Shown: one piece after another, positions 14,060 to 45,851 of the stretch
Layout of the letters: each line of letters begins with the position of its first letter
Position numbering within the stretch: the first letter of the stretch is position 1
Source of the DNA: an uncultured Candidatus Saccharibacteria bacterium
GTDB taxonomy: Bacteria; Patescibacteriota; Doudnabacteria; UBA920
NCBI GenBank assembly: GCA_964612745.1
Contig: CAZTCH010000007.1
Span: 1,327-65,326, forward strand
DNA length: 64,000 nt
Reading direction: 5' to 3'
Notes under the pieces: model-generated
Databases searched by the model: none
What the model saw: only the letters and a program-made list of their open reading frames with translations
Told to the model about the DNA's origin: nothing
Made by a program: the position numbers and the translations under genes

Positions 14060-14206
14060 AAGGTAGAGATTAGAGAATAGAGGGTAGAGAGTAGAGATAA
14101 AAGAGAAGAGTTAGTCGCCTCTTCGGCGACCCGCCGAAGAGGCGGGAAGAAATAGTAAGAAAGTATTAAATAAATCACAATCCGAATTATAGTACTACAG
14201 CATAGA

Positions 14207-15313: not shown

Positions 15314-15359
15314 TGGATATATAAATAAAATACTTAGTAATAACAATAAGAACGGTGGA

Positions 15360-15530
15360 AAAGTGGATAGCGTTTACAGGGTGTCTTTCTTTTCCAATAA
15401 ACATTGGTATTAAACGGCGATCGGTCGGATAAAAAATCTGTAGATAACTTGGGAGTAAGCAAGCTTGAGTGATGGGGATAAGTAGTTATGTAATCCACAG
15501 ATGGGCATGTGGGTGTAACTTATCCACTTT
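15360..15530. promoter_or_regulatory. Candidate oriC segment: a cluster of DnaA-box-like 9-mers in the dnaA-dnaN intergenic region
   Basis: TAATCCACA (15491-15499) and TTATCCACT (15520-15528) are near-consensus boxes. There are also GTGGATAG, TGGGGATAA and TGTAGATAA variants. The region is AT-rich. Confidence 0.5.
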
Positions 15531-15598
15531 TCGAGTGATTTCATGCACAACTTATAGCTGCCTTTTCCCTCCCCTTCTCCACAAGTTATACAGAGTGT

Positions 15599-24400: not shown

Positions 24401-24823
24401 AGACATTTCTCCGTCGTAGCTTGTGCCAGTTGGAGCAAAGTTTACAGAGAGGTACAGGCTGCCGGTGGTAAAGTCTACTCCGGTCAGTGCGTTACATGAG
24501 CCTAGTTTTGCATTGAACACAGCATTGGTCACAACCAGCTTTGCGCAGTCGCCACTTGCTTGGTCAAAAGTTTCTGTCCAGAGCAGGGACCCACTGGTTA
24601 GTGCGTCGTATAGTTTAAATTCAAAAGCGTAGCTGCCATTTGCAACGTTGGTGCCATCACTCGTTTTCGTAAGTTTTCCTTGGAAGTTTACAATTTTAGG
24701 GATTGTAGCACTCGCTTGCTGTGGGTTTGCGGCAAAAGAACTGAACACAACACAAACCAAAGTAACGTACACGAGGGTACGTCTCAGGTTTTTTACCTTA
24801 GTTAAAAAGATATTTTGGTTCAC
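18461..24823 (-). CDS. Giant secreted repetitive surface protein, Gly/Thr/Ser/Ala-rich with beta-helix / tail-fiber-like repeats
   Basis: 2120 aa. The N-terminal signal peptide is LVYVTLVCVVFSSFAANPQQASA. The motif NYAAIF-GGNVGIGTT-P--KL-V recurs at least 8 times. Apparent GTG start. All plus-strand ORFs inside this span are low-complexity antisense artefacts. Confidence 0.85.
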   Translation of the reverse strand: MNQNIFLTKVKNLRRTLVYVTLVCVVFSSFAANPQQASATIPKIVNFQGKLTKTSDGTNVANGSYAFEFKLYDALTSGSLLWTETFDQASGDCAKLVVTNAVFNAKLGSCNALTGVDFTTGSLYLSVNFAPTGTSYDGEMSPRKQFVAAPFAFVANSLNGDGNIDLADFDVDSDGKTTIAPDTAGDSLTISNSATADIQGIVISSSGSTQTAGTIQVTSNTITDTAVLGMALTGTVQDAAAGLTVYGNKTTVTVDTDAGQSHTVYGDHITIANNDASSTAYGLYVDAGTGAGTEYAAAFMNGSVGIGIATPTKALTVEGAMNFTSSGTVRGIVGPPTWDNSYISFQNGTLAESAANSALNQSSGGVTILNAASGQPIYLRTGNSDRVTVNATGLGIGDTSPAAALTVGSGDLFQVNSSGAIAAATGITSSGTINFSGLSASGIVYTDGSKNLTSTAPTSGALGYWSRTGTTLQPTTSNDVISISGNSGDIATLASSATGSANKTLNVSQTGATSGTDYAGYFSNTGAATTNVGLYATATGATNNYAAIFENGNVGVGATSPTGKLAITETTTAQPAISISHGTNSDVISITKGAGVGNLINASFTSGQSNGISFTNTDASTTFANSSMRGLTATLSSGFDNYDITAGRFSATQTRNTAGTNGGTPYGIYSTASTTASAPVGYAGFFESGSARVIPVVAKGNGSQTSDLFQAQNSSGTVLFDISSGGNVGINNTSPDAKLDVVNATIANGKALAKFTGTTTTSTASGTAYGLYNSFANANTTNADTAYSIYNTVTDATALANTVYGNYSDIALSGNAAKTGIGQYLNISTSSTTADTAVGIDIASTATGIITSGTRNVYGARLQPTAGAESTGGTTNVYGAYVKPSADVGAGGTVNGYGLYIANGTYDTDGTSTNTGLYVESPTGADTNYAAIFAGGNVGIGTTAPTALLDVYNSGDSIFAVDNTSDGQVRIKATGAHSQAITLTPRLVSATLFPTGGAGIAIQSSSEFAISAATGGLSLSGGGTTSDLRITTGGNVGIGDNSPASALTVGSGDLFQVNSSGAIAAVVGITNTGVTTTTVSSATALTVAKAGTNYALQVDTVTASAATGLKITSAAAAGGVALAAISSGTNENITIDAKGSGTVSIGASSTGDVLLGGGSGSTGCTVTNSTGAFACTAGGSFTTLGLTGAVTGATSYNGLVITANTGVITSGTWNGTALTDAYVSDTLTASLFTGSGSTTTAVDLGTAEVAGTLAVGNGGTGATSLTDLITLGTHTTGNYVTSITNGSGISGGNGGSEGAALTLALGALSADWSQTGAFDITLNNAASELKILESAGGAFYGIFDVTDLSADRTMTVPDASGTLITTGNLSSITTVGTISSGTWNGTAISSTYGGTGINTSGSTGVPYITGGTWSVDATALAANHGGTGQSSYTTGDILYASSSSALSKLAGVATGSVLVSGGVGVAPAWSTAITVTTSVTSATINATSALQLGGASINTAGTLSNVAYKNAANTFTANNIFQPTVTNGTGASAGVQIAANSLTSGNGVDISSTSLSTGNLTAISSSSTAGGISGSSTLLNLARTGANGSTGHTAYGLYSTVTNTNVTSGTNVAAYLSASGATTANYGLLVAAGNVGIGTTTPPAKLTIEDGGSDSSNYGAIQIVKAATGHTGSHISFIRAASSVVGLGYKQTSNIFGFGAGTTGAFDPTYLAIDTTTGNITVGSSAAATAGLDLVSTVTTGTAQKITTSSLTTGAGLNIVGPTSTGITGTGILRVTSDVGASGTGGYLAGFNPDYSSGTAASSYGIVISGTDSTNVANSNNNFYSGITLSGNAAKNAYAGYFTVSSSSTTADTTTAGLFNSSITGAISTGTRQVWGIYSGPSTSGANTGGTTQVFGGYFAPSSTGSTTGSTVNVYGNYIANAATLTTGGTINSYGIYIANGSMNTTGTSTQYGLYVDTQSGADTNYGAYIGGFVGIGTSAPVSQLHVVANTASNTSGLRLDSNSSNGTNLQLYNNNSTGVSKFIRVMSDSSLQVINSAYSAALLTLTDGGNMGIGMSPTYKLDVSGDIRTSGTFRGTCNVDPAFSDFDCADYAEIYDSVAPVAAGEVLAVSSVGGESRKI

Positions 24824-24937: not shown

Positions 24938-25138
24938 TTAAGCCGCTGTAATTTGGGTTTCTGTCTGGAAAAGGCTTACTAAGCTTTGCTTGGTAAAACG
25001 ACGATCCCGTCTTGAACCGATACGAATAGCTTCTAGTTTACCCATACGCTCCCAATTTCGGAGAGTGTTGGCGTGAACATGAAGGATCTGACAAGCCTCT
25101 TTGAGGGTTAGAAGCTCAGGAATCTGATTCTCTTGCAT
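24938..25138 (-). CDS. Excisionase/AlpA-family HTH DNA-binding protein
   Basis: MQENQIPELLTLKEACQILHVHANTLRNWERMGKL is the Xis/MerR-like HTH_17 pattern. The ORF-track start is a GTG at 25159; the ATG at 25138 is preferred. Confidence 0.6.
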   Translation of the reverse strand: MQENQIPELLTLKEACQILHVHANTLRNWERMGKLEAIRIGSRRDRRFTKQSLVSLFQTETQITAA

Positions 25139-25156
25139 TGTGTTTTTGTTTTTTAC

Positions 25157-25189
25157 CACAGATGCACAGATTTCTCAGATTACACAGAT
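25157..25189. promoter_or_regulatory. Direct heptamer repeats of CACAGAT (three full copies plus a partial) upstream of the Xis-like gene
   Basis: The sequence cacagatgcacagatttctcagattacacagat was seen directly. It resembles an iteron or operator. Confidence 0.4.
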
Positions 25190-25603
25190 ATTCCTACTAC
25201 TTTTTGGTAGTAAGTTGCATCCGTAGTATCTGTAAATTGGTGTACCGGTGGCTTATTTAATTTTGTTTTAGTTTTGGTTTCTTTTGTAAAGATGTTGTTG
25301 GGTTACAAATTTTGGTAACACAACTTAACAAAACCTGTATTTATAGTACCATAAGTTATAAACAGGGTCAAAGGTTTTTAAATAGATAGAATGTAGCTCA
25401 GAGATTGTTGTGTGTATCCAATTTCCTTTGCACTTAAGCGATTATTATGGTTTACTTGTTTTGGCCGGTGTACAGCTTGTGCGTTCGTTGTGGATAACTA
25501 TTCCGGAAAAGTGGATAACTTGTGAGTATTTTTTGCCAGCTCTGTTCATAGAAACTAAAAAAACCACCGGTTGGTGGTTTTTGGTTGGTCCTGTACCTTT
25601 TTG

Positions 25604-26608
25604 TTAACTGTTTTTTCGTTTTACCGTTTTCTTTATCAGAACATATACTACGATAAAAATAAAGGTACTTAATATGAGGAGGAAGCCTAGTACTAAACTG
25701 AGGAGCTCCCATGGTATAACCCAGAAGCTAGCGGTAGCTTTTGTCTGTTTTTGGGTGGAGTCGCCGTAAGTAAGCGTTAAGTTGGCGGTGTAGCGCCCAA
25801 GTGCAAAGTTGTTAAACTCATGTTTTACTGCGTTCCAAAACCCTTTGGGTGTATTTTCTGGCCTTTGTGCGTCTTTTGCTTGCACTTCTCCTTTTGTGTT
25901 GAGCCAAGAAGCTTCAAACCGGCGGATGGAGCGGGGGAGTACGTTGCTCCCGTCTGGGTTTGCGGTTACTATTTGGCTTGTTCCGCCGAACATGTTGTGT
26001 ATAACAATATCTCCGAGTGGTTTTACCCACGAAGCGCCTTCGTTTTGGAATCTGTAAAAGAAATCCACGGGTAAAGCACGGAAAAAGCGAGCATCTTTTG
26101 TTTTAAACTCCAGAATATCTGCACCTTCAAGGAAATTTCCATTTACTTGGGTAAGTAACAGGGTTCCTACTTGCGCTTCTACTGCGACATCACCAGCATT
26201 TTCTGGGGTTTCGCCTACGGTGCTAGCTAGTGCAGCAGCAAAGTAGCCTCCTGGTTCTGCATTTGCTGGTATGGTCACTGTGAACCCCACCTTTTTTCGC
26301 TCTAGAGGGCCAAACGACAACATGTCTTGGTCTAAAGTTATCCATTGGCTCAAGCCTTTTTTTTCTAAAACAAACTTTGGTTGGCCGCTTTCGTCCTTGC
26401 TTTCGAAATCTGCAATAGAAATTTGGTAGACTCTGGGTTTTCGCGCGTCGTTGTACAGTTCAAATTCACCAGAGATAGTTTGTCCTGGGTTTGCTGCAAG
26501 TTCTAGCCTAATTGGGGAAGCGGTTAACGCTGCTGCTGTCTGGGGAAGGCTAGTGACAAGGAGGATAAGGGTGGTTAGGCCCAGTATTGTTTTGTTTACG
26601 TTCCGCAT
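25604..26608 (-). CDS. DUF916/DUF3324-like cell-surface protein (signal peptide plus a C-terminal TM anchor)
   Basis: Signal peptide, then SPIRLELAANPGQTISGEFELYN (DUF916-like). A C-terminal TM helix is followed by the basic tail KKTVKRKNS. 334 aa. Confidence 0.6.
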   Translation of the reverse strand: MRNVNKTILGLTTLILLVTSLPQTAAALTASPIRLELAANPGQTISGEFELYNDARKPRVYQISIADFESKDESGQPKFVLEKKGLSQWITLDQDMLSFGPLERKKVGFTVTIPANAEPGGYFAAALASTVGETPENAGDVAVEAQVGTLLLTQVNGNFLEGADILEFKTKDARFFRALPVDFFYRFQNEGASWVKPLGDIVIHNMFGGTSQIVTANPDGSNVLPRSIRRFEASWLNTKGEVQAKDAQRPENTPKGFWNAVKHEFNNFALGRYTANLTLTYGDSTQKQTKATASFWVIPWELLSLVLGFLLILSTFIFIVVYVLIKKTVKRKNS

Positions 26609-26609
26609 G

Positions 26610-27530
26610 TTATCGAAGTTCTTGTGAAATTATCCATCTGTTGTACTTCTTTGTACCACTATATAACATAATACCAATAAATATCCCCAAAAGGCTAATT
26701 TTTGCCAAATCTAGTATGGGCCAGACCCAAATAGTGGCTTTTTGCCTTGTTTCCAAGGTGGGATTGTTCGAATAGTAAAGTATGGTTTCCACCGTGTACA
26801 TACCGGCGAGCCATTTTTGTGCCTTGGTGGTAAATGTTTTTTCTTCTGTGGGTAGCAGATGCAATGCGTTTTGGTTAATAGGTAGAGACTCGACTAGTCT
26901 TCCAAATACGTTGTAAATGTTTTGTTTTCCTTTTGGTGTGAGGTGCACGTTTCCAGTGTTTTTGAGTAATACAGACGAAGTGTAAGGTTTGTTAACGAAA
27001 TGGGTATCGTTTTTTGAAGTGGTATTGAGCTGGGGTTTGCTGGCTCCGTAGTCTACAAGCAGCAATGTACCTAATTTCCTTGAGACAACGATCGCATTTT
27101 CCTTTGCATCTTCAAAAGAAAAAAGGATGGCTGCGTAGTGTCCACCAGCTGTCGCGTCTGCCGGTGGGGATATTTCAAATTTTACTGTTGTGCTCCCTTT
27201 GGCGGGAATAATAAATTCTGGCTGCTGGGTAATTTTTACCCAAGAGCTCATGGAGTAGCTGTTGTTTATTTGCTCATTTGTTGCAAGAAATCGTGGTTCT
27301 CCAGCTGGGCCGACTGGGATAAAGTCTTGGATGGCATAACTAAGTGTGTGGTCAGTCGTGTCAGTGTTGAACACGGTAATGGTTTTGGTAATGCTTTGCC
27401 CCGGTTCTACTACCGCGTCAATTAAGAATGGTGAAATAGACAAACTTCCTTCGGAAAGTTGCTCTGCGGCGGACACTGTTCCCATAGAAGCAACAAAAAG
27501 TGCAAAAACGAGAGTAATTAGTTTTTTCAT
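26610..27530 (-). CDS. DUF916/DUF3324-like cell-surface protein, paralog
   Basis: Signal peptide, then SPFLIDAVVEPGQSITKTITVFN, then a C-terminal TM with a basic tail. 306 aa. Its start is coupled to the neighbour's stop. Confidence 0.6.
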   Translation of the reverse strand: MKKLITLVFALFVASMGTVSAAEQLSEGSLSISPFLIDAVVEPGQSITKTITVFNTDTTDHTLSYAIQDFIPVGPAGEPRFLATNEQINNSYSMSSWVKITQQPEFIIPAKGSTTVKFEISPPADATAGGHYAAILFSFEDAKENAIVVSRKLGTLLLVDYGASKPQLNTTSKNDTHFVNKPYTSSVLLKNTGNVHLTPKGKQNIYNVFGRLVESLPINQNALHLLPTEEKTFTTKAQKWLAGMYTVETILYYSNNPTLETRQKATIWVWPILDLAKISLLGIFIGIMLYSGTKKYNRWIISQELR

Positions 27531-27568: not shown

Positions 27569-28690
27569 TTAGTATTGAGCAGTGGTAATATACGTAACTG
27601 TGTTGGTGTACTGGCCTGCGGCTTGCCCAGTGCCAATTTCTAGCTTGTAGCTGACAGTTGTTTCTTCGCTTGTTGCAGGTCCAGTGGAGCAGGCAACTTC
27701 GTAGTTTCCGGTGTCCAGCGCTGCCCATGTGTTGTTTGTAGAAAAACGGCTTGTTGTGCCGGTGCAGAGTGACTCATCGCTACTATGGTAGCCAAAGGCC
27801 CCAGTGGTAATACTCCCAGGCCAAGTTGCTGGCGTGCTGTTGGTGCCGCTGACTGGGCTAATAGTTTCGCTGCCGCCGTCTCTGGTGAGTGCTTGGTTCT
27901 GCCGAATGGTAGTGGTGTATCCCGCCGAGGCGTTTGTGGTGACGGTAATTTTATGAGCAGCAATTGCTGGGACGTTGACCCCTAATTGACCATAGGCGAT
28001 AGCATTTGCTGTGGTGGTAATAGTAGTGGTTTCGCCGTCGAACAAGGTGCCAGATCCAATCCCAGAAAAGGTAATACTCAGGCTTGCTCCTACCGTTGCA
28101 GCGGTGGCTGTGTTGGAGAACCCAGTTTCGGTGTTGGTGCCATACCGTGCTTTCACTTTTATTTTATACGTAGTACTGGCGGTAAGGCCAGTAACTCGCC
28201 CACCACTGCCACCACCCCATGCGGTGTAGCTTTGCCAAGCTGCTGTTGTTCCTACCGTGTTATCTACTTGAATATAGTTTGTTGTGACAAAATCGTCGCT
28301 AGAAATTGCAATGGCGTAATTTGTATCTGTTTGTTGGCCGTCGCCTGTGGTAATAACGTAGTCCAGTGCGTTGTATAGGCTACCACCAGTATTTGTGAGT
28401 GTAGGTGTAGCAGGGACACCTGGGAAAGCATGCTGGAAAAAGCCTGGGAATATGGAATAGTTTCCTGAGGCTGTACTGCTGTCGTTAGAGTCGCCAATAC
28501 CATCTCTGCTGGCGTAATTGGTAGAGCTAGAAGCACCACCACCGCTGTCTAGGCTTGGGTTTTCTATTTGGTAATTGCTGCCACTCAATGTTTCTGCCTG
28601 TGCTATTGGGGCAAACACAAGACTGCACAAGGCACAGAGCCATACGAGTTGTTTTACAATCTGTAGCTGCATATACAGTAAGTTTACCAC
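27569..28690 (-). CDS. Secreted Thr/Gly-rich protein with an Fn3-like domain and a WxL-like C-terminus in which Trp is replaced by Tyr
   Basis: It has a signal peptide. STTYKIKVKARYGTNTETGFS is Fn3-like. The C-terminus GQYTNTVTYITTAQY aligns to the WxL consensus G-x-Y-x-x-x-L-T-W-x-L with W replaced by Y. 373 aa. Confidence 0.55.
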   Translation of the reverse strand: MVNLLYMQLQIVKQLVWLCALCSLVFAPIAQAETLSGSNYQIENPSLDSGGGASSSTNYASRDGIGDSNDSSTASGNYSIFPGFFQHAFPGVPATPTLTNTGGSLYNALDYVITTGDGQQTDTNYAIAISSDDFVTTNYIQVDNTVGTTAAWQSYTAWGGGSGGRVTGLTASTTYKIKVKARYGTNTETGFSNTATAATVGASLSITFSGIGSGTLFDGETTTITTTANAIAYGQLGVNVPAIAAHKITVTTNASAGYTTTIRQNQALTRDGGSETISPVSGTNSTPATWPGSITTGAFGYHSSDESLCTGTTSRFSTNNTWAALDTGNYEVACSTGPATSEETTVSYKLEIGTGQAAGQYTNTVTYITTAQY

Positions 28691-28702: not shown

Positions 28703-29731
28703 TTATCCGATCTCTCGCCTTCTTTTTTCCCTGGCAATAATATATTTATTGTATTGCTTGAGAGCGAGCCGGAGAATGAGCAGTGCCACAATCCCAGATG
28801 GGATAACAACTGCCAGTAATTCCCAAGGGATAATCCAAAACGAGGTTGTTATTTGGGCACGATTTTGGTTTTGTGATCCGTATGTCAGTGTTAGTCTTGC
28901 TTTGTACCATCCAATAGGCGCATATGTTGCTTGATGTTGTACTTTGGCGAAAAAGGTATTTGGTGCTGACGGCGGTGGTTGGTTTTGTGGGTTCTCTGTG
29001 TCGCCACTCTTGGTGAGCCATGAGGCAGTATACTTGCGAATTGACTTTGGTAATACATTGCCACCAGTCGGGTTCGCTGGGATGATCTTCTTTGTTTTAC
29101 CCCACGCATTCTCTATTACAACATCACCGAGTGGTTTGGCCCAATCTTCGCCATTGTTTTGAAAACGGTAGAAAAAGTCCACTGGTAGGGTGGAAAAAAA
29201 CTTTCGGTTTTGCGCAGTGGAAAATTCTAAAATATCAGCGCCTTCTGTAAAGTCACCAGAGACCCTAAGGAGTACGAGCATGCCAATTTGGCTGCCAATC
29301 GCAACACCGTCTGCTTCGGCTGCTATCTGCGGTGGTTCGTTTCTGAGTAGGATGGCGGCAAAATGCCCCCCAGCATCGGCGTCTGTTGGTACGGAAAGCA
29401 GCACGGTGATTTTTTGTCGTTCACTTGGGCCAAGGGTTATGTCGCTTGGGCCAGAAAACCACTGCGAAATGCCTTCTTTTTGCCGGCTTAAGACAGGGTT
29501 ACCGCTCTCATCTTTGGCATTAAAAGTTTGGTAGTCCAAGTAATAGACTTTTGACTCTTTTTGGTCGTTGTAGGCATCAAAGGTGATTGTGAGAATGCTT
29601 CCGGCAGAAGCAGTGAGCTCTGTTTTAACGGGGGAGACTGTTATGGCTTGTGTTGGGGTGGTATTTGCCCAAAATGCTAAAAGTATCCCACAAACGAGTA
29701 GTGAGTATATGTGTTTTGGTTGTGTGAACAA
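28703..29731 (-). CDS. DUF916/DUF3324-like cell-surface protein, third paralog
   Basis: Signal peptide, then SPVKTELTASAGSILTITFDAYN, then a C-terminal TM with the tail KQYNKYIIAREKRRREIG. 342 aa. Confidence 0.6.
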   Translation of the reverse strand: MFTQPKHIYSLLVCGILLAFWANTTPTQAITVSPVKTELTASAGSILTITFDAYNDQKESKVYYLDYQTFNAKDESGNPVLSRQKEGISQWFSGPSDITLGPSERQKITVLLSVPTDADAGGHFAAILLRNEPPQIAAEADGVAIGSQIGMLVLLRVSGDFTEGADILEFSTAQNRKFFSTLPVDFFYRFQNNGEDWAKPLGDVVIENAWGKTKKIIPANPTGGNVLPKSIRKYTASWLTKSGDTENPQNQPPPSAPNTFFAKVQHQATYAPIGWYKARLTLTYGSQNQNRAQITTSFWIIPWELLAVVIPSGIVALLILRLALKQYNKYIIAREKRRREIG

Positions 29732-29820
29732 AGCGTTTTTGTAGGGTTACTTCGAAAATAATTATACACCATTCAGAGGTGAATGGTGTATAGATTGGTT
29801 GTAAAACAGTTTTTGTGAGT

Positions 29821-30924
29821 TTAGAAATTCCCTGTTGCGATGTACGTCAAGGTGGTAGAATAGCTACCTGCTTCAGTGAGTGTGGAAATGTTAGCTAGAT
29901 AGGAAACGCTTAAAGTTTCTGTTGCAGTCGGTACTGTTTCAGAGACAATAGTGGTTGCGGTGCTGGCAACAAAGTTCCAGCTACTGTTTGTCCCACGTGC
30001 GTACCCAGAAGCTACAGTTGCGTCGCCACTCGCGCTGACCGACAATGCAAATTGTTCGCTACCTGTTGTACCGTCACTATCGGTGGTAATGCTTGCTGCG
30101 GTAATAGTGTTGCCTCCACTGGTGAGTGTAGCACCGAAATACGTTACACTGTACCCGCTCTGAGCGTTTGTACCAACTGTTAAGGTGTGTGCTGCTGTCG
30201 GGGTGTTGCCAGCTGTGGCGTTGCCACCAACGGCGTCTCCTGTAGCCCAGCGACCAGTGCTAGAAGACAGAGTGCCAAACCCAATAGTGTTGTCGTCTAC
30301 AGTAAATGTGATAGATGGAGCGACTGTAGCGCTAATACTGACTTGGTCGTCGGTAATAATGTCATATGAAAGAGTGCCGCTGTCACCAAATGTACCACCC
30401 ACAGTTAAGGTGTCGTCATCATCTGCTGCGCCATTGCTAATTTGGTTGGTTCCAGCAACACCTGTGCTGGCGTGTGTACCAATTTTAATGCGTACACAAC
30501 GGCTTGCGGTTACTGTACCAGTTCCAGAAGTAATGGTGACTACTTGGCCAGATGCTCCAATGCCCCACGTTGCCCCACTGGGGGAGCCAGCGAGTGTTTG
30601 TTCTGTGTACGATGCAGTTGTACATGTGGCGCTATCGCCTGTAGCAAAGTCAACATCCCCGAACACTATACTGCTTACCCCAGTAAAATCAGCAGAAAAT
30701 GTTAGGGTTATGTCTTGCCCAGCAGTAACACCTGTAGGGGTAACAAAAAATATTGTGTGGTTTGCCGCAGTGCTCGCTTTTAATCTGCTGAGAGTGTCGG
30801 AGAATGAAGTTATTGCAGCAGCTTGTGCTACTTGGATGTTTGGTAGTAATAAGGCAAGAGAGACTATAACAACCAGAATGTGTTTTAGTCTTTTTTTGAG
30901 TGCGGTTGGGATAACGTTTCGCAT
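29821..30924 (-). CDS. Secreted Thr/Gly-rich protein with a WxL-like (YxI-variant) C-terminus
   Basis: Signal peptide. The C-terminus EAGSYSTTLTYIATGNF matches that of the 373-aa protein. SSWNFV is a candidate first motif. 367 aa. Confidence 0.55.
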   Translation of the reverse strand: MRNVIPTALKKRLKHILVVIVSLALLLPNIQVAQAAAITSFSDTLSRLKASTAANHTIFFVTPTGVTAGQDITLTFSADFTGVSSIVFGDVDFATGDSATCTTASYTEQTLAGSPSGATWGIGASGQVVTITSGTGTVTASRCVRIKIGTHASTGVAGTNQISNGAADDDDTLTVGGTFGDSGTLSYDIITDDQVSISATVAPSITFTVDDNTIGFGTLSSSTGRWATGDAVGGNATAGNTPTAAHTLTVGTNAQSGYSVTYFGATLTSGGNTITAASITTDSDGTTGSEQFALSVSASGDATVASGYARGTNSSWNFVASTATTIVSETVPTATETLSVSYLANISTLTEAGSYSTTLTYIATGNF

Positions 30925-30981: not shown

Positions 30982-31926
30982 TCACTTTTCTTCTTGTTTG
31001 TACAGCAATCTTTTCCCTAGAATAATTACGAACAGTAGCAAGACTACTGAAATAAGTGAAAGCCACACGAGAGTAGGTTGATTCTGTCTGTTTCCTTTTG
31101 CAATTTTGCTTATTACCGTTTCATTACCAGACATGTCCACTGCTTTGAGGAATACCTTGATGTCTTTGTCTCCTTGGTTTTTGAGTTGGTATGGGGATCG
31201 TGTTCTTACCCAATCGGTTTCAGTAGGGTACTCTTTTTTTGCGTCTATTTCGGCAATCTCGTAGTATTGTATACCGCTTTCCACATCTTCTGCTTGAAAA
31301 GCCGCAAACCAATTGCCTGAGAAAAGTGTTTCATCCTTCCCAATGGCAAGCTCGAGGTGTATTGGGGGAGTGTTGTCTGGAGTATTTGCGAGAGGGGTTT
31401 CTACAGCTTTTTCTGTGGGTTTGCCAATATTGATTGTTATCGGGGTGTATTGGTGAGGGATAACGCTACCGAGTCCGTCATTTGCTAAGGCTTTTGTGTT
31501 TTCGGCATATGATATGGTTGCAGTTCCTTCTGCAAGTGCTTTAAAAGAGATAGAGAAGAGTTGGCCTTGTCTACCGGTGAAACCTGGTGTAGGTAATCCT
31601 CCAGTAAAGCTAATAACTCCAGAATTTTGGGCTTGGCTGGGTTTTGACTGCCAGTACGAGATAATTGAATTAGCCGTGCTGAGGCTTGTTACTGCAAGCA
31701 TCTTACTCGGATAGTTCACGCTTCCTTCGAGTGCATTTGCTGCCGTGGTTGTATTGAGGAATGCCGAAACGGTAAAGGTTTCACCTATTACAACAGCTTT
31801 TTTTGAGCTAAAAGTAAATGTGCTGTCACTTGCCAGTAGCGCCGATGGGGATACGCAGAAGAGTAGTACTACAACGGCAAGTAATTGTGTGGTTTTGTGT
31901 AAAGACATAGAGTGTTTGTTAGTCAT
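30982..31926 (-). CDS. Membrane-anchored protein with a cohesin-like beta-sandwich domain
   Basis: It has a signal peptide. GETFTVSAFLNTTTAANALEGSVNYPSKMLAV...GQLFSISFKALAEGTATISY follows the cohesin pattern. The C-terminal TM is LVWLSLISVVLLLFVIILG followed by KR. 314 aa. Confidence 0.5.
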   Translation of the reverse strand: MTNKHSMSLHKTTQLLAVVVLLFCVSPSALLASDSTFTFSSKKAVVIGETFTVSAFLNTTTAANALEGSVNYPSKMLAVTSLSTANSIISYWQSKPSQAQNSGVISFTGGLPTPGFTGRQGQLFSISFKALAEGTATISYAENTKALANDGLGSVIPHQYTPITINIGKPTEKAVETPLANTPDNTPPIHLELAIGKDETLFSGNWFAAFQAEDVESGIQYYEIAEIDAKKEYPTETDWVRTRSPYQLKNQGDKDIKVFLKAVDMSGNETVISKIAKGNRQNQPTLVWLSLISVVLLLFVIILGKRLLYKQEEK

Positions 31927-33412
31927 TCCACCAGTAGAGAAGGATGCTAAAGTCTACTAAGTTTACTATTTTATCTTTATTTATATCTGCAAGTGTTGTG
32001 CCACTTTTCTGCCAGTAGTACATGAGAATGCTCAGATCTGTCAGATTTACTTTGGTATCACAGTTTAGATCTGCTGGAATACTTGCACATTGCAAGCCGA
32101 CTTTTTTGCTACCCAGAATAGCAAGATTTCCAATAGTGTTCAGTGGTATTTGGAATTGGTTTGATTTATTCAGTAGTGGTTGTATTGGCGTGATATTCCA
32201 GCGATTTTCTGGTGCAAAGAAAGCATTTCCCCATTCTGGGGTAAACACACTCACTTGTTGTGGGGTATACACCAGAGTCGCAGTAAGGGCTTGTTTGGGG
32301 TAGCGCACTACTCTACCAGTGGCGTCTTGGATAAAAATTCCGAAGAGTACATCTGCGATGGCGAATTTATTTGGGGCACCAGTTTTATTTGGAAACCCAG
32401 ACCATGAAAGACACGTTAGGGAGAGCTGGCTTTGGTCTGGAATGCTACCAGCGGGGATGTGTAGTTGTATATATGCCCCATTTTGGCACGCAATACCGTA
32501 CACACCGCTCAGTGTGGCGTCTATGACTGTAGCGTTTGCACTAGGGAGTAATACAACGCCGGTGTTACTTTGTGTGTGAGAAATAGTATATATTTCTTCG
32601 ACAATCCCACTAGCTGTGTAATCGGTCTTAGCTGCCAAAGCTTTCAGGGTTGTAGTTTCGGTGAAAGTGAGAGGGGTAGTATATACGGAGCTACTTATGG
32701 TGGGGTTACTGCCGTCAGTTGTATAATAAATGGTTGCTCCACTTGTTGCGCTGGTAATGCTTACCGTTACTGTGTTTTCAAACAACGCTGTCGTAGGGTT
32801 CATGACAGGGCTTGCTACCGTACCAAGGGTGCCAACGAGAGAACTAATACCAACAGGGTCAGTGATGGCTATGGATACTTCACCTGAGTCGATAAGTGCG
32901 TCTAGGCTTGTACTCGTAGCGATATTGAGAGAATATGTCCCAATACTGCTAGGATTGGTTATGTCTTGGTCTCCAGCGCTTTGAAATGTGGCGTTACTAC
33001 CAATTTCGATTACTATAGTGCTTCCAGCACTGATGGGGTCAGTGTCGTTCAAGGTGAATTGGATGCTGCCACTGCTTCCAGATATGGCCTGAGCTCCTAT
33101 GCTACTTCCAGAGCCTGTGCCGGCGCTAGCGCTTAAAGACGCGTCAGTAGCGTTAATCTCGAGGTCTAAGTCTTCATGGTTTAGGCTGGGGATGGTAAAA
33201 GCGCTGCTTTGTGGAGTAATGGTGATTTTGCCACCCGCTGGTATTTCTGTGGGGTTGGTAAAAGTAATTCGATGTCTTGCTGGTTCTGACTTTGCTGAAG
33301 TACTTATTCTGTCACTTCTGTTGGTGAGTGTGGCAGCTTGTGTGTTTGTGCTCTGGTGCAAAACCCACAACAATCCAGTTGCAAGCACGAGAAGTGCGCA
33401 TAGTTTTTTCAT
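31919..33412 (-). CDS. Secreted protein with an Fn3-associated (chitobiase-C-like) domain and a C-terminal dockerin (two Ca-binding repeats)
   Basis: It has a signal peptide. GATIYYTTDGSNPTISSSVYTTPLTFTETTTLKALA is an Fn3_assoc-type segment. The C-terminus DLNCDTKVNLTDLSIL...ADINKDKIVNLVDFSILL gives two dockerin repeats. 497 aa. Confidence 0.65.
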   Translation of the reverse strand: MKKLCALLVLATGLLWVLHQSTNTQAATLTNRSDRISTSAKSEPARHRITFTNPTEIPAGGKITITPQSSAFTIPSLNHEDLDLEINATDASLSASAGTGSGSSIGAQAISGSSGSIQFTLNDTDPISAGSTIVIEIGSNATFQSAGDQDITNPSSIGTYSLNIATSTSLDALIDSGEVSIAITDPVGISSLVGTLGTVASPVMNPTTALFENTVTVSITSATSGATIYYTTDGSNPTISSSVYTTPLTFTETTTLKALAAKTDYTASGIVEEIYTISHTQSNTGVVLLPSANATVIDATLSGVYGIACQNGAYIQLHIPAGSIPDQSQLSLTCLSWSGFPNKTGAPNKFAIADVLFGIFIQDATGRVVRYPKQALTATLVYTPQQVSVFTPEWGNAFFAPENRWNITPIQPLLNKSNQFQIPLNTIGNLAILGSKKVGLQCASIPADLNCDTKVNLTDLSILMYYWQKSGTTLADINKDKIVNLVDFSILLYWWND

Positions 33413-33421
33413 ACGGATTGC

Positions 33422-33790
33422 TTAGGCTTTTAAAAGCGTTCTTGCTCGTCTTTGGTCAAGGTAAAAGTTGGTCACTATTAAACCAAAGAGAGTGGTAATT
33501 GCAATAGCGAGCAGCCACTGTCTCGATGTCTCCGTTTGGTTTTGGTATCGTTGTTGTGCGTCGAGTTGTTGTGCTCGTTTTTCTAAAACCTGCTTTTCTT
33601 CTTGTAGTTGTTGGTAGAGGGTGTTTTCTGGAGTAGGGTCAACGGTCCCACCAACTGCAATCCCGGCAACAGTGCCAATTGGGCCTGTTTGTTCGACGGT
33701 GTATGCGTCTATTGCCGGTAGAACCAGCATAAGGCAGGCGCACGCGCTGAGTAAGAGTGTATAGGTACCAGTGAGAAAAGAGATTTTCAT
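33422..33790 (-). CDS. Small membrane protein with a coiled-coil (N- and C-terminal hydrophobic segments)
   Basis: 122 aa. It has a signal/TM at the N-terminus, a Gln/Glu-rich coiled-coil in the middle, and a C-terminal TM. Confidence 0.45.
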   Translation of the reverse strand: MKISFLTGTYTLLLSACACLMLVLPAIDAYTVEQTGPIGTVAGIAVGGTVDPTPENTLYQQLQEEKQVLEKRAQQLDAQQRYQNQTETSRQWLLAIAITTLFGLIVTNFYLDQRRARTLLKA

Positions 33791-33942: not shown

Positions 33943-34083
33943 ATGAAGCGAACATACCAACCAAAAGTTAAAAAGCGTTTAAAGACGCATGGTTTTCGCG
34001 CCCGAATGAAAACAGTTACGGGGCAGGCAGTTATTGCCCGCAGACGGGCAAAGGGGCGAAAGAGACTGTCTATTAGCGAATAG
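33943..34083 (+). CDS. rpmH: 50S ribosomal protein L34
   Basis: [46 protein letters not shown]. The ORF-track start lies upstream of the true ATG. Confidence 0.95.
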
Positions 34084-34139
34084 CTTTAGATCGGCAAGCT
34101 TATAAAGCTAAAGCTTTATAAGCTTTTATTTTATACACT

Positions 34140-34484
34140 ATGTTTTCTCGGGAGAACCGTTTAGCGCAAGATGGTGATATTCAGAGGGTCTTACGAACAG
34201 GTCGTAAGTTTTTTTGCCCTCTTTTTACTATTCGGTGGCGTGAGGTGCACAATACTGTCACACCTCCTCGGTTTGCGGTCGTGGTGTCTACGAAGGTGGC
34301 GAAACGGGCGGTAAAGCGGAATCGACTACGTAGGATTACTCGTGAATTATTGCGTAAAAACCTGCGAAGTATACACTCTGCAGACTATATGATCATCTTA
34401 CGCCCTGAGGTCCTTAAGGTGCCCGAGGCGCAATATCTGCAAACACTTGCTGGGGCATTTGAAAAGGCGAAACTGTTGGTATAG
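34140..34484 (+). CDS. rnpA: Ribonuclease P protein component
   Basis: A 114-aa basic protein containing the RnpA motif RLRRITRELLR. It sits in the conserved rpmH-rnpA order. Confidence 0.9.
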   Translation: MFSRENRLAQDGDIQRVLRTGRKFFCPLFTIRWREVHNTVTPPRFAVVVSTKVAKRAVKRNRLRRITRELLRKNLRSIHSADYMIILRPEVLKVPEAQYLQTLAGAFEKAKLLV

Positions 34485-34560
34485 TGTAAGTATTTCTCAT
34501 AAAAAGTGCTTTGAGCACTTTTTTGTTTATCCACAGAATCTGGTACACTACCTGAGTAAT

Positions 34561-34791
34561 ATGCGATATTTACTTGCCGGAATCATTGTATTGTACCAGC
34601 GCACGATATCCTTAGATCATGGATTGTTTCGGGGTTTGTACCCGCATGGGTATTGTAGGCATTTTCCTACATGTAGTGAATACGCACGGCAATCGATTCT
34701 AAAGTACGGTGTTTTTCGAGGTGTGGGGAAATCTACTTTGCGCGTCTTACAGTGCCATCCTTTTGCTAAGCCGTCTGTTGATTTACCATAA
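34561..34791 (+). CDS. yidD: Membrane protein insertion efficiency factor YidD
   Basis: The ATG at 34561 gives MRYLLAGIIVLYQRTISLDHG...CRHFPTCSEYARQSILKYG, which is the YidD signature. Confidence 0.85.
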   Translation: MRYLLAGIIVLYQRTISLDHGLFRGLYPHGYCRHFPTCSEYARQSILKYGVFRGVGKSTLRVLQCHPFAKPSVDLP

Positions 34792-34926
34792 AGGGTATAG
34801 GGTTTGTTGTTTTTAGAAAAGGAGATAGTGGTCGAGCTCTGTACGAATGTAACTTCTTTTGCTGTTCTTTGGTCTCTACTGCTCAGTGAGTAGAGAGTGA
34901 AGATTAGTAATTAGAAAATATTTCCA

Positions 34927-35625
34927 ATGTTGGAACTTTACCATCAGTTTATTTATAACCCGTTACTGAATTTGTTGGTTTGGGGGTACAATTCGTTACC
35001 AGGTCACGATATCGGTATTGTTATTGTCGTGCTTACTATTTTAGTTCGCTTGCTGCTTGCACCAACAATGCACAAGCAGATTAAAAGTCAGCATGCAATT
35101 GCAAAACTGCAGCCAAAACTAGAAGAGTTAAAAGAAAAGCATAAAGATAATAAAGAGGTTCAGGCTCGCGCAGTAATGGATTTGTATAAAGAACACAATG
35201 TGAACCCCTTTGCTTCTTGTTTGCCCTTGCTGTTGCAGCTGCCAATCCTCATCGCCCTGTATCAAGTGTTTAATAAAGCACTCCATGGAAACTTGGATGG
35301 CTTATATCGTGTAGTGTACAACCCAGGGGTGATTGACCCTATGTTCTTAGGTGTTATAAACTTGGCCAATCCGAATATTATTTTGGCAGTTTTGGCTGGT
35401 GGTTTGCAGTTTTGGCAAGCTCGAATGATGCAAGCAAAATCTGCTACAAAACCCACAGATGCTTCGGCGCAAATGATTCAGATGCAGACAATGTACTTGC
35501 TACCACTGGTGAGTATCTTTATTGCGTGGCGTTTGCCAGCAGGTCTGCCGTTGTACTGGATCGTGACCACATTGTTTGCAATCGCACAACAGTATTACGT
35601 TACGAAGCGTCACACGAACGAGTAG
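34927..35625 (+). CDS. yidC: Membrane protein insertase YidC (short form)
   Basis: 232 aa with five TM helices and the conserved LLLQLPILIALYQVF. It lies downstream of yidD. Confidence 0.9.
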   Translation: MLELYHQFIYNPLLNLLVWGYNSLPGHDIGIVIVVLTILVRLLLAPTMHKQIKSQHAIAKLQPKLEELKEKHKDNKEVQARAVMDLYKEHNVNPFASCLPLLLQLPILIALYQVFNKALHGNLDGLYRVVYNPGVIDPMFLGVINLANPNIILAVLAGGLQFWQARMMQAKSATKPTDASAQMIQMQTMYLLPLVSIFIAWRLPAGLPLYWIVTTLFAIAQQYYVTKRHTNE

Positions 35626-35657
35626 TTGGTTATTGGTAAAATATTAAAGCAAGCCAT

Positions 35658-36128
35658 ATGAACTCTGACACTATAGAGGGTATTACCTCGGTTATTACCG
35701 GTTTAGTTTCTGCTATGGGTCTAGTTGCGACAGTGGAAGTAGAAGATATCCCCCATAGAGGGATCGTATTCTCTATTCACCCTGAGTCATCTGCGTATAT
35801 GCTTATTGGTCACCGTGGGGAACATTTGCACGCGCTTGAAGTTTTGGTAGTTGCGATGTCTCGCCGGATATTGCCTGAAACTCCTTGGTTTAGTTTGGAT
35901 GTAGATGATTATAAACGGAAGCGTGAGTGGTATTTGAAAGAGACTGTACAAGGTGCGGTGGCGCATCTCGAGAAAGCGGGTAAACAGGTGGGATTAGTGC
36001 CAATGCCTAGTTATGAACGAAGGTTCGTGCACTCCTATATACAAGAACGGTACCCGCAGGTAGAGTCTGAAAGTGTTGGTGTTGCGCAGTCACGGCGCAT
36101 TGTTTTGAAAAAAAAGTCTAAAGAATAA
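35658..36128 (+). CDS. khpB: Jag/KhpB RNA-binding protein (KH plus R3H)
   Basis: The C-terminus RRFVHSYIQE...GVAQSRRIVLK is an R3H signature. It follows yidC, as jag does in other bacteria. Confidence 0.8.
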   Translation: MNSDTIEGITSVITGLVSAMGLVATVEVEDIPHRGIVFSIHPESSAYMLIGHRGEHLHALEVLVVAMSRRILPETPWFSLDVDDYKRKREWYLKETVQGAVAHLEKAGKQVGLVPMPSYERRFVHSYIQERYPQVESESVGVAQSRRIVLKKKSKE

Positions 36129-45774: not shown

Positions 45775-45851
45775 GGGCGTGTAGCTCAGCTGGTTAGAGC
45801 ACGAAGCTTATACCTTCGGGGTCCATGGTTCGAATCCATGCACGCCCACCA
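45775..45851 (+). tRNA. tRNA-Ile (anticodon UAU), CCA encoded
   Basis: A manual cloverleaf gives acceptor GGGCGUG/CACGCCC, D-stem GCUC/GAGC, anticodon stem CGAAG/CUUCG with loop CUUAUAC, and a T-arm CAUGG-UUCGAAU-CCAUG. A terminator follows at 45853-45883. Confidence 0.85.

Follow-up and report, generated by a model that had tools for sequence, protein, structure and literature searches.

The ultra-small Patescibacteria, or CPR bacteria, presumably spend their lives attached to host cells, a lifestyle in which surface fibres have a central place. PapH, a subunit of the chaperone-usher P pili, is folded like a pilin with a groove that is non-exchangeable, and it remains at the usher in the outer membrane. 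Some cohesin-dockerin bonds rank with the strongest of all known non-covalent bonds. In Clostridium perfringens, cohesin-dockerin modules join secreted enzymes to each other, and in Ruminococcus flavefaciens the cell-anchored, single-cohesin ScaE tethers scaffoldins and the CttA adhesin.

The Pam pilus of CPR bacteria was first described in a 2026 preprint (Troman et al., bioRxiv 10.64898/2026.03.03.709456). In Ca. Mycosynbacter amalyticus, its parts are the pilins PamA, PamB and PamE, the tip PamT, the transmembrane-anchored chaperones PamC and PamD and the tether PamR, encoded in the order PamC-PamB-PamR-PamD-PamE-PamA-PamT, and a conserved tail-fibre-like neighbour gene is also reported (10.64898/2026.03.03.709456). 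PamR (WP_260763282.1 / QHN43270.1) is a 32.8 kDa protein with two β-sandwich domains and a transmembrane helix, and is proposed to be both terminator and tether; termination of the pilus and its retention on a cell without outer membrane, usher or sortase are still a model (10.64898/2026.03.03.709456).

The window analysed here, the whole stretch of 64,000 nucleotides, encodes two adjacent proteins of 497 and 314 aa, referred to as DOC and COH. The reading that we set out, and hold with about even confidence, is that they are a divergent, non-cellulosomal cohesin-dockerin pair in the operon of a Pam-type (CPR) donor-strand-exchange pilus. No cohesin or dockerin is reported from the M. amalyticus operon, which counts against this reading.

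The dockerin protein

DOC (31919..33412, minus strand) was characterised from the ORF list, Pfam, an AF2 monomer model (pLDDT 80.4) and a family alignment (A2). It begins with a signal peptide (aa 1-26), followed by a Pam-pilin-type N-terminal β-sandwich (aa 27-184), a linker, a CHB_HEX_C/Fn3_assoc region (aa 200-278), a further β-sandwich (aa 295-434) and the dockerin (aa 445-497). The signal peptide was confirmed, and DOC is accordingly predicted to be secreted. The earlier note on this DNA had described the protein as ending in two canonical dockerin repeats and as carrying an Fn3-associated, chitobiase-C-like segment, and both descriptions hold. The two peptides, DLNCDTKVNLTDLSIL (aa 448-463) and ADINKDKIVNLVDFSILL (aa 475-492), are present, and CHB_HEX_C_1 and Fn3_assoc score 63 and 60 bits, respectively. 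In the Pfam run that the earlier note had proposed, Dockerin_1 passes its gathering threshold on DOC (27.5 bits, cut-off 22.9), whereas Cohesin (PF00963) reaches 23.1 bits on COH, 1 bit under its cut-off of 24.1.

The dockerin module (31922..32080, minus strand; assigned by Dockerin_1, A2 and the AF2 helices) is of the canonical two-loop type. Its 12-residue calcium-binding loops, DLNCDTKVNLTD (448-459) and DINKDKIVNLVD (476-487), are each followed by a helix, at aa 457-465 and 485-493 in the AF2 model. Among the loop residues, D448-N450-D452-D459 and D476-N478-D480-D487, all are invariant in A2 except N478, which is nearly so. A duplicated calcium-binding F-hand dockerin is shared with the cellulosomal type I, II and III systems; however, cellulosomal dockerins differ from that of DOC, which has a conserved cysteine pair (Cys442 and Cys451) and the aromatic-rich helices SILMYYW and SILLYWW. 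When ORFs of 60 aa and longer in the window were scanned for tandem dockerin loops, DOC alone matched.

The cohesin protein

COH (30982..31926, minus strand) was characterised with AF2, Foldseek, Pfam and NCBIfam. A signal peptide (aa 1-32) precedes a cohesin domain (aa 35-170; 31417..31824, minus strand; assigned by Pfam, Foldseek and the family profile), a Pro/Thr linker, an FnIII/OmpL47-type domain (aa 185-280) and a C-terminal transmembrane anchor at about aa 282-306 (31009..31077, minus strand), located by a hydrophobicity scan and by an AF2 helix at 284-313. COH is therefore a bitopic, type-I membrane protein with its cohesin outside the cell on an FnIII/OmpL47-like stalk. Both reading frames were recovered at the coordinates given earlier, together with every peptide quoted from them, including GETFTVSAF, LEGSVNYPSKMLAV and GQLFSISFKALAEGTATISY in the COH translation. 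The signal peptide and C-terminal anchor previously ascribed to COH stand, but its gene had been called upstream of that of DOC; since both are on the minus strand, the COH gene lies downstream in transcription.

The Pfam Cohesin match of COH is borderline compared with cellulosomal cohesins, although it has an E value of 9e-5 and spans positions 7-137 of the 139 in the profile. Among 11 close homologues, six match Pfam Cohesin (best 4e-12), whereas just 12 of 62 wider relatives do so at 1e-3; this low share and the 1-bit shortfall of COH both count against our reading. The AF2 model (pLDDT 79.9) was compared with the PDB by Foldseek. The cohesin-FN3 construct 2w1n ranks first (E=2.5e-12). Of the top 34 rows, cohesin entries fill 32, at TM (target) values of 0.7-0.8 and a probability of 1.0, and the other two rows are 2w1n and 2o4e, a related module. 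A fold other than cohesin, named beforehand as the outcome that would discard the assignment, did not appear. Thus, the central cohesin-type domain claimed for the 314-aa protein is borne out by both homologues and model, and COH is predicted to adopt the nine-stranded β-sandwich (jelly-roll) cohesin fold, as in the cellulosomal types. The family profile of COH also gives weak PDB matches to 5aoz (E 3e-4) and 5m2o (1e-3), whose chains are annotated as putative cellulosomal scaffoldin proteins.

The closest structural matches come from the non-cellulosomal pairs of C. perfringens, with 2w1n (from GH84C) joined by 2jh2 and 2vo8 at TM values of 0.77-0.80. Like COH, these proteins carry an FnIII-type domain behind the cohesin and function without a cellulosome. 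In contrast, COH is anchored in the membrane and has no enzyme domain, its partner is derived from a pilin, and identity is just 12-16%.

A cellulosome was considered and ruled out: there is one cohesin, on a 314-aa transmembrane protein, and one tandem dockerin in the scanned ORFs of the window (60 aa or longer), and Pfam finds no catalytic domain or CBM in DOC or COH. Unlike cellulosomal systems, this locus has no multi-cohesin scaffoldin, CBM or dockerin-bearing catalytic enzymes, and the anchor is a transmembrane helix instead of a sortase or SLH attachment. The likeness would lie in an anchored cohesin that holds a dockerin-bearing extracellular structure under load.

Conservation of the gene pair

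The DOC and COH genes overlap by 8 nt. A search through the cohesin protein gave 66 loci, of which 62 are paired, three are truncated at a contig end and one is without a dockerin gene; the paired loci include two (L027 and L042) that were missed by the ORF-overlap threshold of the script and added by hand. Hence, in 62 of 63 assessable Patescibacteria loci, a dockerin-protein gene lies immediately upstream of a cohesin-transmembrane gene on the same strand, and the dockerin-then-cohesin gene order is conserved across Patescibacteria. For the 60 pairs called by the script, the median intergenic gap is 13.5 nt, and in 59 of them the dockerin lies at most 7 aa from the C terminus. Dockerin_1 matches 49 of 54 partner proteins of related loci.

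The Cohesin matches of homologues, the cohesin-like AF2 model and the gene order in 62 of 63 loci argue that the pairing of DOC and COH goes beyond chance. DOC and COH probably bind each other through cohesin and dockerin. On the other hand, a mirror-tree comparison gave a cohesin-dockerin correlation (r=0.51) no higher than that between a control domain and the dockerin (r=0.55), which counts against our reading. The alternative that the two domains do not interact, adjacency reflecting common regulation of unrelated secreted proteins whose folds serve other ends, would accommodate this lack of specific co-evolution, and the many cohesin-like and dockerin-like modules outside cellulosomes for which no partner is known are in its favour, but it is very improbable given an order and strand kept in so many CPR lineages with near-zero gaps, dockerins at the extreme C terminus and invariant calcium-loop residues.

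The surrounding Pam-type pilus operon

The earlier note had placed the pair beside a WxL-like locus, and this part has to be given up. The 367-aa neighbour (29821..30924, minus strand) matches the NCBIfam model CPR_Pam_pilin_C (NF058581) with 72.2 bits against a cut-off of 55, pointing to a Pam pilus operon. A WxL/Csc locus was rejected: at E<=1 no WxL match was found in the eight operon proteins, and the sole sub-threshold match, to WxLIP_PGBD (22 bits vs 27.3), falls on the 306-aa protein.

On the evidence of these gene products, the neighbours of DOC and COH are a Pam-type pilus operon, containing two pilins and three transmembrane-anchored chaperone-like proteins and accompanied by a giant fibre protein. 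The first gene (33422..33790, minus strand; from the ORF list) encodes a protein of 122 aa whose Gln/Glu-rich, coiled-coil-like middle lies between a hydrophobic segment at the N terminus and a transmembrane helix at the C terminus, with hydrophobic segments at aa 5 and 92. It has no significant Pfam match, and a homologue of about 125-137 aa precedes the dockerin gene in the loci L001-L013 and L043. After DOC and COH comes the 367-aa pilin, which has more than 1000 homologues, the best 120 being 53-92% identical and bearing various CPR lineage labels; it is probably the major subunit. Right after its gene, a terminator-like scan detected a 13-bp hairpin by consensus match only (29763..29792, minus strand), which may act as an intra-operon attenuator.

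The operon continues on the minus strand with a 342-aa, PamC/PamD-like chaperone-like protein (28703..29731; transmembrane helix at aa 297, weak fn3_5 match), a second pilin of 373 aa (27569..28690), a 306-aa chaperone-like protein (26610..27530; transmembrane helix at aa 267, weak WxLIP_PGBD and fn3_5 matches) and, as the last gene, a 334-aa chaperone-like protein (25604..26608; transmembrane helix at aa 293-330), followed by a terminator-like hairpin at 25559..25582. The three chaperone-like proteins share C-terminal transmembrane helices, as reported for PamC and PamD, and gene positions conserved in related loci, that of the 342-aa protein among them; Pfam gave nothing beyond the weak fn3_5 and WxLIP_PGBD matches. 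The synteny of the operon as a whole is conserved. In the 373-aa pilin, an N-terminal motif resembling PamT precedes a middle part that is FnIII-like and a C-terminal domain of the Pam pilin type, the last called by a pilCTD HMM match and by Pam_pilin_C at 26.9 bits, below the NCBIfam cut-off. Beyond the operon lies the gene (18461..24823, minus strand; from the ORF list) of a 2120-aa, Gly/Ser/Thr-rich giant secreted protein, "tail-fibre-like" and without a Pfam match; giant genes flank related loci and are conserved neighbours of these operons.

[quoted passage not shown] It differs in that a module of small protein, dockerin protein and cohesin protein heads the operon. Also, no PamT equivalog (NF058579) was detected, the best score being 34 bits against a cut-off of 240, in the 373-aa protein, where the match is confined to the first 70 residues.

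Pilin ancestry of the dockerin protein

The N-terminal domain of DOC (aa 27-184; 32861..33334, minus strand) is homologous to that of the adjacent 367-aa pilin, with 32% identity over 154 aa (BLASTP, E=5e-12), and an HMM of this domain ("ntd") matches the two kinds of protein in L001-L013. The alignment continues as far as the linker QVSISATVAP between the N- and C-terminal domains of the pilin. By its position in the alignment, the DOC segment at aa 185-196, DPVGISSLVGTL (core PVGISSLVGT, aa 186-195; 32825..32860, minus strand), is the equivalent of this linker and a candidate donor strand. Although the monomer model gives it a pLDDT below 50, A2 shows an invariant V187 and an almost invariant G188. 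However, the similarity of PVGISSLVGT to the pilin linker is weak (BLOSUM 14, below the 17 of the 95th percentile of shuffles), which speaks against our reading. The acceptor domain of the pilin was not found in DOC: no pilCTD HMM match was obtained, and the middle domain of DOC has no similarity to the pilin C-terminal domain (hhalign probability 0.6%). With the pilin N-terminal domain and linker present and the acceptor domain absent, DOC is therefore a pilin derivative and not a pilin. A 298-aa relative (L010) consists of the N-terminal domain, linker, a Pro/Thr-rich stretch and dockerin, and nothing more.

In short dockerin partners of other lineages, the signal peptide is directly followed by a strand similar to the pilin linkers. 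For example, ADVVSISATVG, AVEVSVSAGV, AVNVLITALV and GDVAVSATVS were compared with the pilin linkers DDQVSISATVAP and DDQVAVSSTVSQ. In five of seven dockerin proteins without a pilin N-terminal domain, the best pilin-linker match along the whole protein lies at the mature N terminus, and the scores of dockerin-protein strands average 18-20 versus 9.4 ± 4.3 for shuffles. Nonetheless, cognate-specific covariation between these strands and the pilin linkers was not detected (20.2 vs 18.3), a result that we count against our reading. Three dockerin partners match the NCBIfam PamT model, and the gene order pilin, chaperone, dockerin protein, cohesin protein occurs in L075, L076 and L080.

Proposed mechanism and alternatives

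In the mechanism that we propose, the pilin-like N-terminal domain and linker strand of DOC would plug into the last pilin of the growing fibre, and DOC, having no acceptor groove of its own, would end polymerisation. Its dockerin would bind the cohesin of COH in a calcium-dependent manner, and this bond would keep the completed pilus attached to the membrane, the Ig-like domains in between spanning the wall as a stalk. DOC would thus cap the base of the pilus and dock it onto the membrane protein COH, and the terminator-plus-tether role proposed for PamR would be divided between two proteins, a pilin-derived dockerin adaptor and a membrane cohesin. That the DOC-COH complex anchors or terminates the pilus is a tentative conclusion, to which we give slightly less than even weight.

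The proposed logic resembles that of PapH, in which the last subunit donates a strand and cannot accept one, so that growth ends and the fibre is anchored. The means are different: DOC has spacer domains and a dockerin in place of the acceptor domain, and the anchor would be a separate, inner-membrane cohesin. In the earlier note, the pair was taken for a surface scaffold, with the dockerin protein tethered by the anchored cohesin. Its calls of a non-cellulosomal cohesin and dockerin are retained on sequence, fold and synteny, whereas, as DOC carries a pilin N-terminal domain and the flanking genes are a Pam-type operon, the tethered object is probably the base of a pilus and not a free-standing scaffold protein.

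The strongest alternative is generic surface display, where COH tethers DOC as a stand-alone adhesin or glycan-binding protein that is never part of a pilus, the cohesin tether takes the role that sortase or SLH anchoring has elsewhere, and the pilin-like domain is a recycled Ig-like module. The passengers of the 54 dockerin partners scanned vary widely (Big_6 in 32, MG2 in 7, DUF4215 in 6 and CHB_HEX_C in just 5), CHB_HEX_C/Fn3_assoc is typical of carbohydrate-active surface proteins, and in about half of the dockerin-cohesin loci crude HMMs found no Pam chaperone or pilin match nearby. Moreover, five of eight loci found via the pilin have the pilin-chaperone core and no dockerin-cohesin pair within 10 kb. 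These last two findings also count against our reading: not all of these pili have the pair, and the pair is also found apart from them. Nevertheless, we consider this alternative unlikely, because DOC and the adjacent pilin share a full N-terminal domain and linker, the short dockerin partners open with a pilin-linker-like strand, and the pair shares a gene run with pilin and chaperone genes, both in this locus and across many lineages.

A second alternative takes COH for a PamR-type terminator and tether that acts through its own inserted strand. In this case, the cohesin-like domain would be merely structural and the dockerin would bind something else, such as calcium-dependent host or wall glycans or another genome-encoded cohesin. 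[quoted passage not shown] However, in the AF2 model the first strand of COH after the signal peptide belongs to the cohesin sandwich and no extra N-terminal strand is seen. Also, PamR was matched to RbmA by its authors, whereas the top PDB matches of COH are nearly all cohesins, and the dockerin gene that almost always lies beside it argues for the cohesin as a functional receptor of dockerins. Altogether, this alternative appears improbable.

Occurrence across Patescibacteria

Extending the pilus-base reading, a cohesin-dockerin cassette could serve throughout Patescibacteria as the non-covalent, load-bearing membrane anchor of Pam pili and perhaps of giant surface fibres, with the joining element of the fibre at the N terminus of the adaptor; we regard this generalisation as possible but doubtful. 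The cassette would consist of a secreted adaptor ending in a dockerin, a short transmembrane cohesin and, often, a longer transmembrane cohesin with a cytoplasmic coiled-coil tail. The joining element would be a full pilin N-terminal domain with linker, a bare donor-like strand or a PamT-like motif and, bearing it, the adaptor would both stop assembly and dock the fibre.

A phylum-wide cassette that often lies within pilus operons, and whose dockerin partner bears pilin joining elements, makes the question of pilus termination and retention directly testable, as concrete candidate binding partners, domain boundaries and predicted interfaces are now to hand. If true, pili would be anchored in a way that differs from ushers and sortases and had not been recognised before. 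Cohesin-dockerin would then gain a new biological role, and its uses would widen from enzyme scaffolding to the anchoring of a polymerised fibre.

More than 3,500 protein clusters match the cohesin-protein profile at E<=1e-30, some of the top ones being multi-domain giants that match through the second domain. The OmpL47-type domain (NCBIfam) is present in 40 of 62 COH relatives, and a hydrophobicity scan found a C-terminal transmembrane helix in 67 of the 76 short cohesin proteins of the fetched loci.

The gene pair and its domains

The region 30982-33412 holds two minus-strand ORFs, coding for the secreted 497-aa dockerin protein (31919..33412) and the membrane-anchored 314-aa cohesin protein (30982..31926), exactly as delimited in the earlier note, whose quoted peptides were all found. 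The 314-aa gene had been placed directly upstream of its partner; both ORFs being minus-strand, transcription in fact reaches the 497-aa gene first, and the stop of this gene shares an 8-nt overlap with the first ATG of its 314-aa neighbour. Pfam matches to CHB_HEX_C_1 (63 bits) and Fn3_assoc (60 bits) agree with the Fn3-associated, chitobiase-C-like segment described for the 497-aa protein. Of the two Pfam domains expected for the pair, Dockerin_1 is present in the 497-aa protein (27.5 bits, cut-off 22.9), and Cohesin falls 1 bit under its cut-off in the 314-aa protein (23.1 bits, E=9e-5), though nearly the entire profile is spanned.

An AF2 model of the 314-aa protein (pLDDT 79.9) was obtained on an alignment of 11 close homologues from a word-based search, six of which match Pfam Cohesin (best 4e-12). 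In it, the signal peptide is followed by two beta-sandwiches (aa 35-170 and aa 185-280), with a Pro/Thr linker between them, and by a C-terminal helix (aa 284-313); both the signal peptide and the C-terminal anchor attributed to this protein are thus present. The top Foldseek match in the PDB is 2w1n, a cohesin-FN3 construct of C. perfringens GH84C (E=2.5e-12), followed by dozens of type I, II and III cohesins with TM values of 0.7-0.8. The cohesin-like central domain proposed in the earlier note, which had named an unrelated fold as the contrary outcome, is therefore borne out by the model and its best structural matches.

The family profile of the 314-aa protein gives 10,997 matches among 1.84 billion representatives, 3,585 of them with E<=1e-30; most of the matches listed correspond to full-length proteins around 300 aa long, and a few are multi-domain giants matched repeatedly via the second domain. 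This second domain corresponds to an NCBIfam OmpL47-type domain in 40 of 62 wider relatives, and Pfam Cohesin is reached at 1e-3 by only 12 of the 62. Against the PDB, the profile finds weak matches to two chains annotated as putative cellulosomal scaffoldin proteins. By these profile comparisons, the relatives of the 314-aa protein form a large, divergent cohesin clade.

The two Ca-binding repeats claimed for the end of the 497-aa protein (module 31922..32080, minus strand) are confirmed beyond the Pfam score: in an alignment of 14 orthologues, D448, N450, D452, D459, D476, D480 and D487 are invariant in two 12-residue loops and N478 of the second loop is nearly so, and the AF2 model (pLDDT 80.4) shows one helix behind each loop. 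Among the ORFs of 60 aa or more in the 64-kb window, only that of the 497-aa protein contains tandem dockerin loops. With the whole 497-aa model, Foldseek returns generic multi-Ig matches only. The same alignment shows a conserved Cys pair, C442/C451. Such a pair is conserved in CPR-family dockerins, with one Cys about 6-10 residues ahead of the first Ca loop and its partner inside that loop, and it is also found at L075:12252-13109 and L080:12215-13051, two of the related genome loci fetched for comparison. A disulfide at such a position would be unusual for canonical type I dockerins.

The Pam pilus operon around the pair

The first account of Pam pili, from 2026, concerns Ca. Mycosynbacter amalyticus. 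Their pilins join an N-terminal sandwich to a truncated Ig-like C-terminal domain through a single linker strand, which is donated to the next subunit; in M. amalyticus the operon is PamC-PamB-PamR-PamD-PamE-PamA-PamT, with PamC and PamD as chaperones that a C-terminal TM helix retains in the membrane, PamT as the proposed tip, and PamR (about 33 kDa, two FnIII domains and a TM helix) as the proposed terminator and tether of the fibre, acting via its N-terminal strand (Troman et al., bioRxiv 10.64898/2026.03.03.709456). In the window, the gene following that of the cohesin protein (29821..30924, 367 aa) matches NCBIfam CPR_Pam_pilin_C with 72 bits (cut-off 55), and a 373-aa protein gives weaker NCBIfam Pam matches. 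The order of transcription is a 122-aa small protein, the 497-aa dockerin protein, the 314-aa cohesin protein, the 367-aa pilin followed by a hairpin, a 342-aa chaperone-like protein, the 373-aa second pilin, and two further chaperone-like proteins of 306 and 334 aa followed by a terminator-like hairpin. Each of the three chaperone-like proteins carries a C-terminal TM helix.

By domain content and gene order, then, the pair lies in a Pam pilus operon. The label of WxL-like locus is rejected, because Pfam detected no WxL domain in the operon proteins, only one sub-threshold WxLIP_PGBD match. A PDB sequence search with both window pilins returned nothing relevant, 25PZ and 25QA being absent from the searched copy or too divergent; a homologue search with the window pilin yielded numerous CPR pilins but no sequence recognisable as one from M. 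amalyticus.

The first product of the operon (33422..33790, minus strand, 122 aa) has a hydrophobic segment at either end and is rich in Gln and Glu in between; homologues lie ahead of the dockerin gene in L001-L013 and L043. The 13-bp hairpin directly 3' of the 367-aa pilin gene (29763..29792, minus strand) and the terminator-like hairpin with Ts 3' of the last chaperone gene (25559..25582, minus strand) are consensus matches only; the former could give a high pilin-to-accessory ratio.

Pilin ancestry and the proposed anchor

Residues 2-153 of the 497-aa protein align with the N-terminal domain (NTD) of the adjacent pilin at 32% identity (E=5e-12), and when the two protein types of 13 loci are aligned together, the alignment is continuous from the conserved mature N-terminus up to the pilin linker. 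The linker DDQVSISATVAP is aligned with DPVGISSLVGT, a segment with pLDDT below 50 in the monomer model, with a conserved PVG core, V187 invariant and G188 nearly so; taken alone, the linker similarity in the window is weak (score 14, against 17 for the 95th percentile of shuffles). Past the linker, the pilin continues into its acceptor domain and the 497-aa protein into CHB_HEX_C, another beta-sandwich and the dockerin. Comparing this latter sandwich with the C-terminal domain of the pilin, hhalign gave no similarity (probability 0.6%). A relative in L010 is reduced to the NTD, linker, a Pro/Thr-rich stretch and dockerin. The 497-aa protein is, judged from these alignments, a pilin derivative.

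What is established is the identity of the domains, the topology of the proteins, their conserved adjacency and the descent of the dockerin partner from a pilin. On this basis, the dockerin of the 497-aa protein would bind the cohesin of the 314-aa protein, which is considered probable. The pilin-like NTD and linker would join the proximal fibre end by strand donation, fibre growth would end for want of an acceptor groove in the 497-aa protein, and the cohesin-dockerin bond would then keep the fibre on the membrane. This role as pilus anchor is put forward tentatively, at slightly under an even chance. It would be the same terminate-and-tether role as that proposed for PamR in M. amalyticus, but divided over two proteins; the logic is similar to that of PapH of P pili, again with the division over two proteins. 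Cohesin and dockerin are not mentioned in the Pam pilus preprint (Troman et al., bioRxiv 10.64898/2026.03.03.709456), and no paper linking cohesin-dockerin pairs with Pam pili was found. Non-cellulosomal cohesin-dockerin pairs and Pam pili are both already known, the new element being their combination.

Conservation of the pairing

Contigs with 497-aa orthologues have the same synteny, beside rnpA-yidD-yidC-jag. Moreover, scanning the cohesin-protein alignment against one genome per species gave 68 loci, from MAGs labelled Saccharibacteria, Doudna-, Nomura-, Falkow-, Parcu- and Paceibacterota and Minisyncoccia. With HMMs of the window families, the cohesin gene was found in 66 loci, and in 62 of these (including L027 and L042, added by hand after the script's ORF-overlap threshold had excluded them) the same-strand gene directly upstream encodes a protein ending in a dockerin; three of the remaining loci are cut by contig ends and one has no dockerin gene. 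For the 60 script-called pairs, the median gap between the genes is 13.5 nt, and the dockerin ends at most 7 residues from the C-terminus in 59. Pfam Dockerin_1 is matched by 49 of 54 dockerin partners. A mirror-tree comparison of 63 pairs was uninformative (r=0.51 for dockerin-cohesin distances vs r=0.55 for dockerin and a control domain).

The passenger domains of the 54 partners differ (Big_6, MG2, DUF4215, fn3). This variability favours the main rival explanation, a variable passenger protein simply displayed at the surface, as do the dockerin-cohesin loci lacking pilus genes; such a role for the window pair is regarded as unlikely. A cellulosome is rejected, there being neither scaffoldin nor enzymes. 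SEML1_0315 of Southlakia epibionticum is an essential dockerin protein (Wang et al. 2023); its 927-aa gene stands alone between hydrolase and tRNA genes and is therefore rejected as an instance of the dockerin-cohesin cassette.

At least one additional cohesin gene is present in 48 of the 66 loci. Genes just 3' of the short cohesin gene encode cohesin proteins of a longer class (about 400-700 aa), which is absent from the window. Six of the longer proteins were read in their entirety: each combines a cohesin and Ig domains with a signal peptide and a TM helix, and five (L029:11044-12774, L047:10815-12566, L056:10720-12492, L059:9947-11716 and L041:10766-12199) carry a charged, coiled-coil-like cytoplasmic tail of about 70-100 aa, which hints at a link between cell surface and cytoplasm.

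Donor-strand-like N-termini in other lineages

Among eight loci found through the pilin, three (L075, L076 and L080) have the order pilin, chaperone, short dockerin protein, cohesin protein and long cohesin protein; the other five have the pilin-chaperone core, with no dockerin-cohesin pair found within 10 kb. The short dockerin proteins measure about 280-350 aa. Directly behind the signal peptide they have a strand that resembles the pilin linker, then a spacer rich in Gly and Pro, followed by Big_6 domains and the dockerin. The N-terminus and the pilin linker are ADVVSISATVG and DDSVNITATVDP in L075, AVEVSVSAGV and DEQVSVTATVDP in L076, AVNVLITALV and DDTVDITATVDP in L080, and GDVAVSATVS and DDQVAVSSTVSQ in L026. 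The mature N-terminus is the protein-wide best match to the pilin linker in five of seven dockerin proteins without a pilin NTD, with mean scores of 18-20 against 9.4 +/- 4.3 for shuffles. The resemblance is at family level only, with no cognate-specific covariation between N-terminal strands and linkers.

A third class of dockerin partners (about 420-460 aa; L014:7456-8766, L018:5780-7039, L041:8580-9890, L055:3914-5236 and L068:8614-9966) has an N-terminal motif xFxSxNYxVxxPV... in common with the 373-aa pilin of the window (ETLSGSNYQIENPSL) and NCBIfam PamT, which three of these partners match. Their loci have no nearby Pam chaperones, and L014, L018 and L068 adjoin giant fibre genes. The broader reading, in which the dockerin-cohesin cassette would anchor fibres phylum-wide, is considered less likely than not.

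Genomic surroundings

Downstream of the terminator-like hairpin lie a gene for a 73-aa HTH_17/MerR-type DNA-binding protein (24938..25159, minus strand; HTH_17 39.9 bits) and then one for a 2120-aa Gly/Ser/Thr-rich secreted protein (18461..24823, minus strand), overlapped by a downstream 411-aa gene (17248..18483, minus strand). An equivalent small HTH gene occupies the corresponding position in L004, L077, L078, L079 and L081, and the 73-aa protein may therefore be a putative regulator of the giant gene. A Pfam scan of the 2120-aa and 411-aa proteins gave no match. Giant genes, from 1,700 to more than 4,000 aa, flank related loci, and that of the window probably corresponds to the 'tail fibre-like' neighbour of Troman et al.

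The locus is near the replication origin, with dnaA, dnaN and recF at 13-17 kb (12971..16975) and a GC skew sign switch near 16 kb. The genes rpmH (33943..34083, plus strand, assigned by eye), rnpA, yidD, yidC and jag (together 33943..36128) diverge from the operon promoter region, and the location beside rnpA-yidD-yidC-jag is kept in L001-L006. Finally, a tRNA-Ile with anticodon TAT (UAU), uncommon in bacteria, is found at 45775..45851 (plus strand), and the interval from 53 to 64 kb contains eight further tRNA genes.
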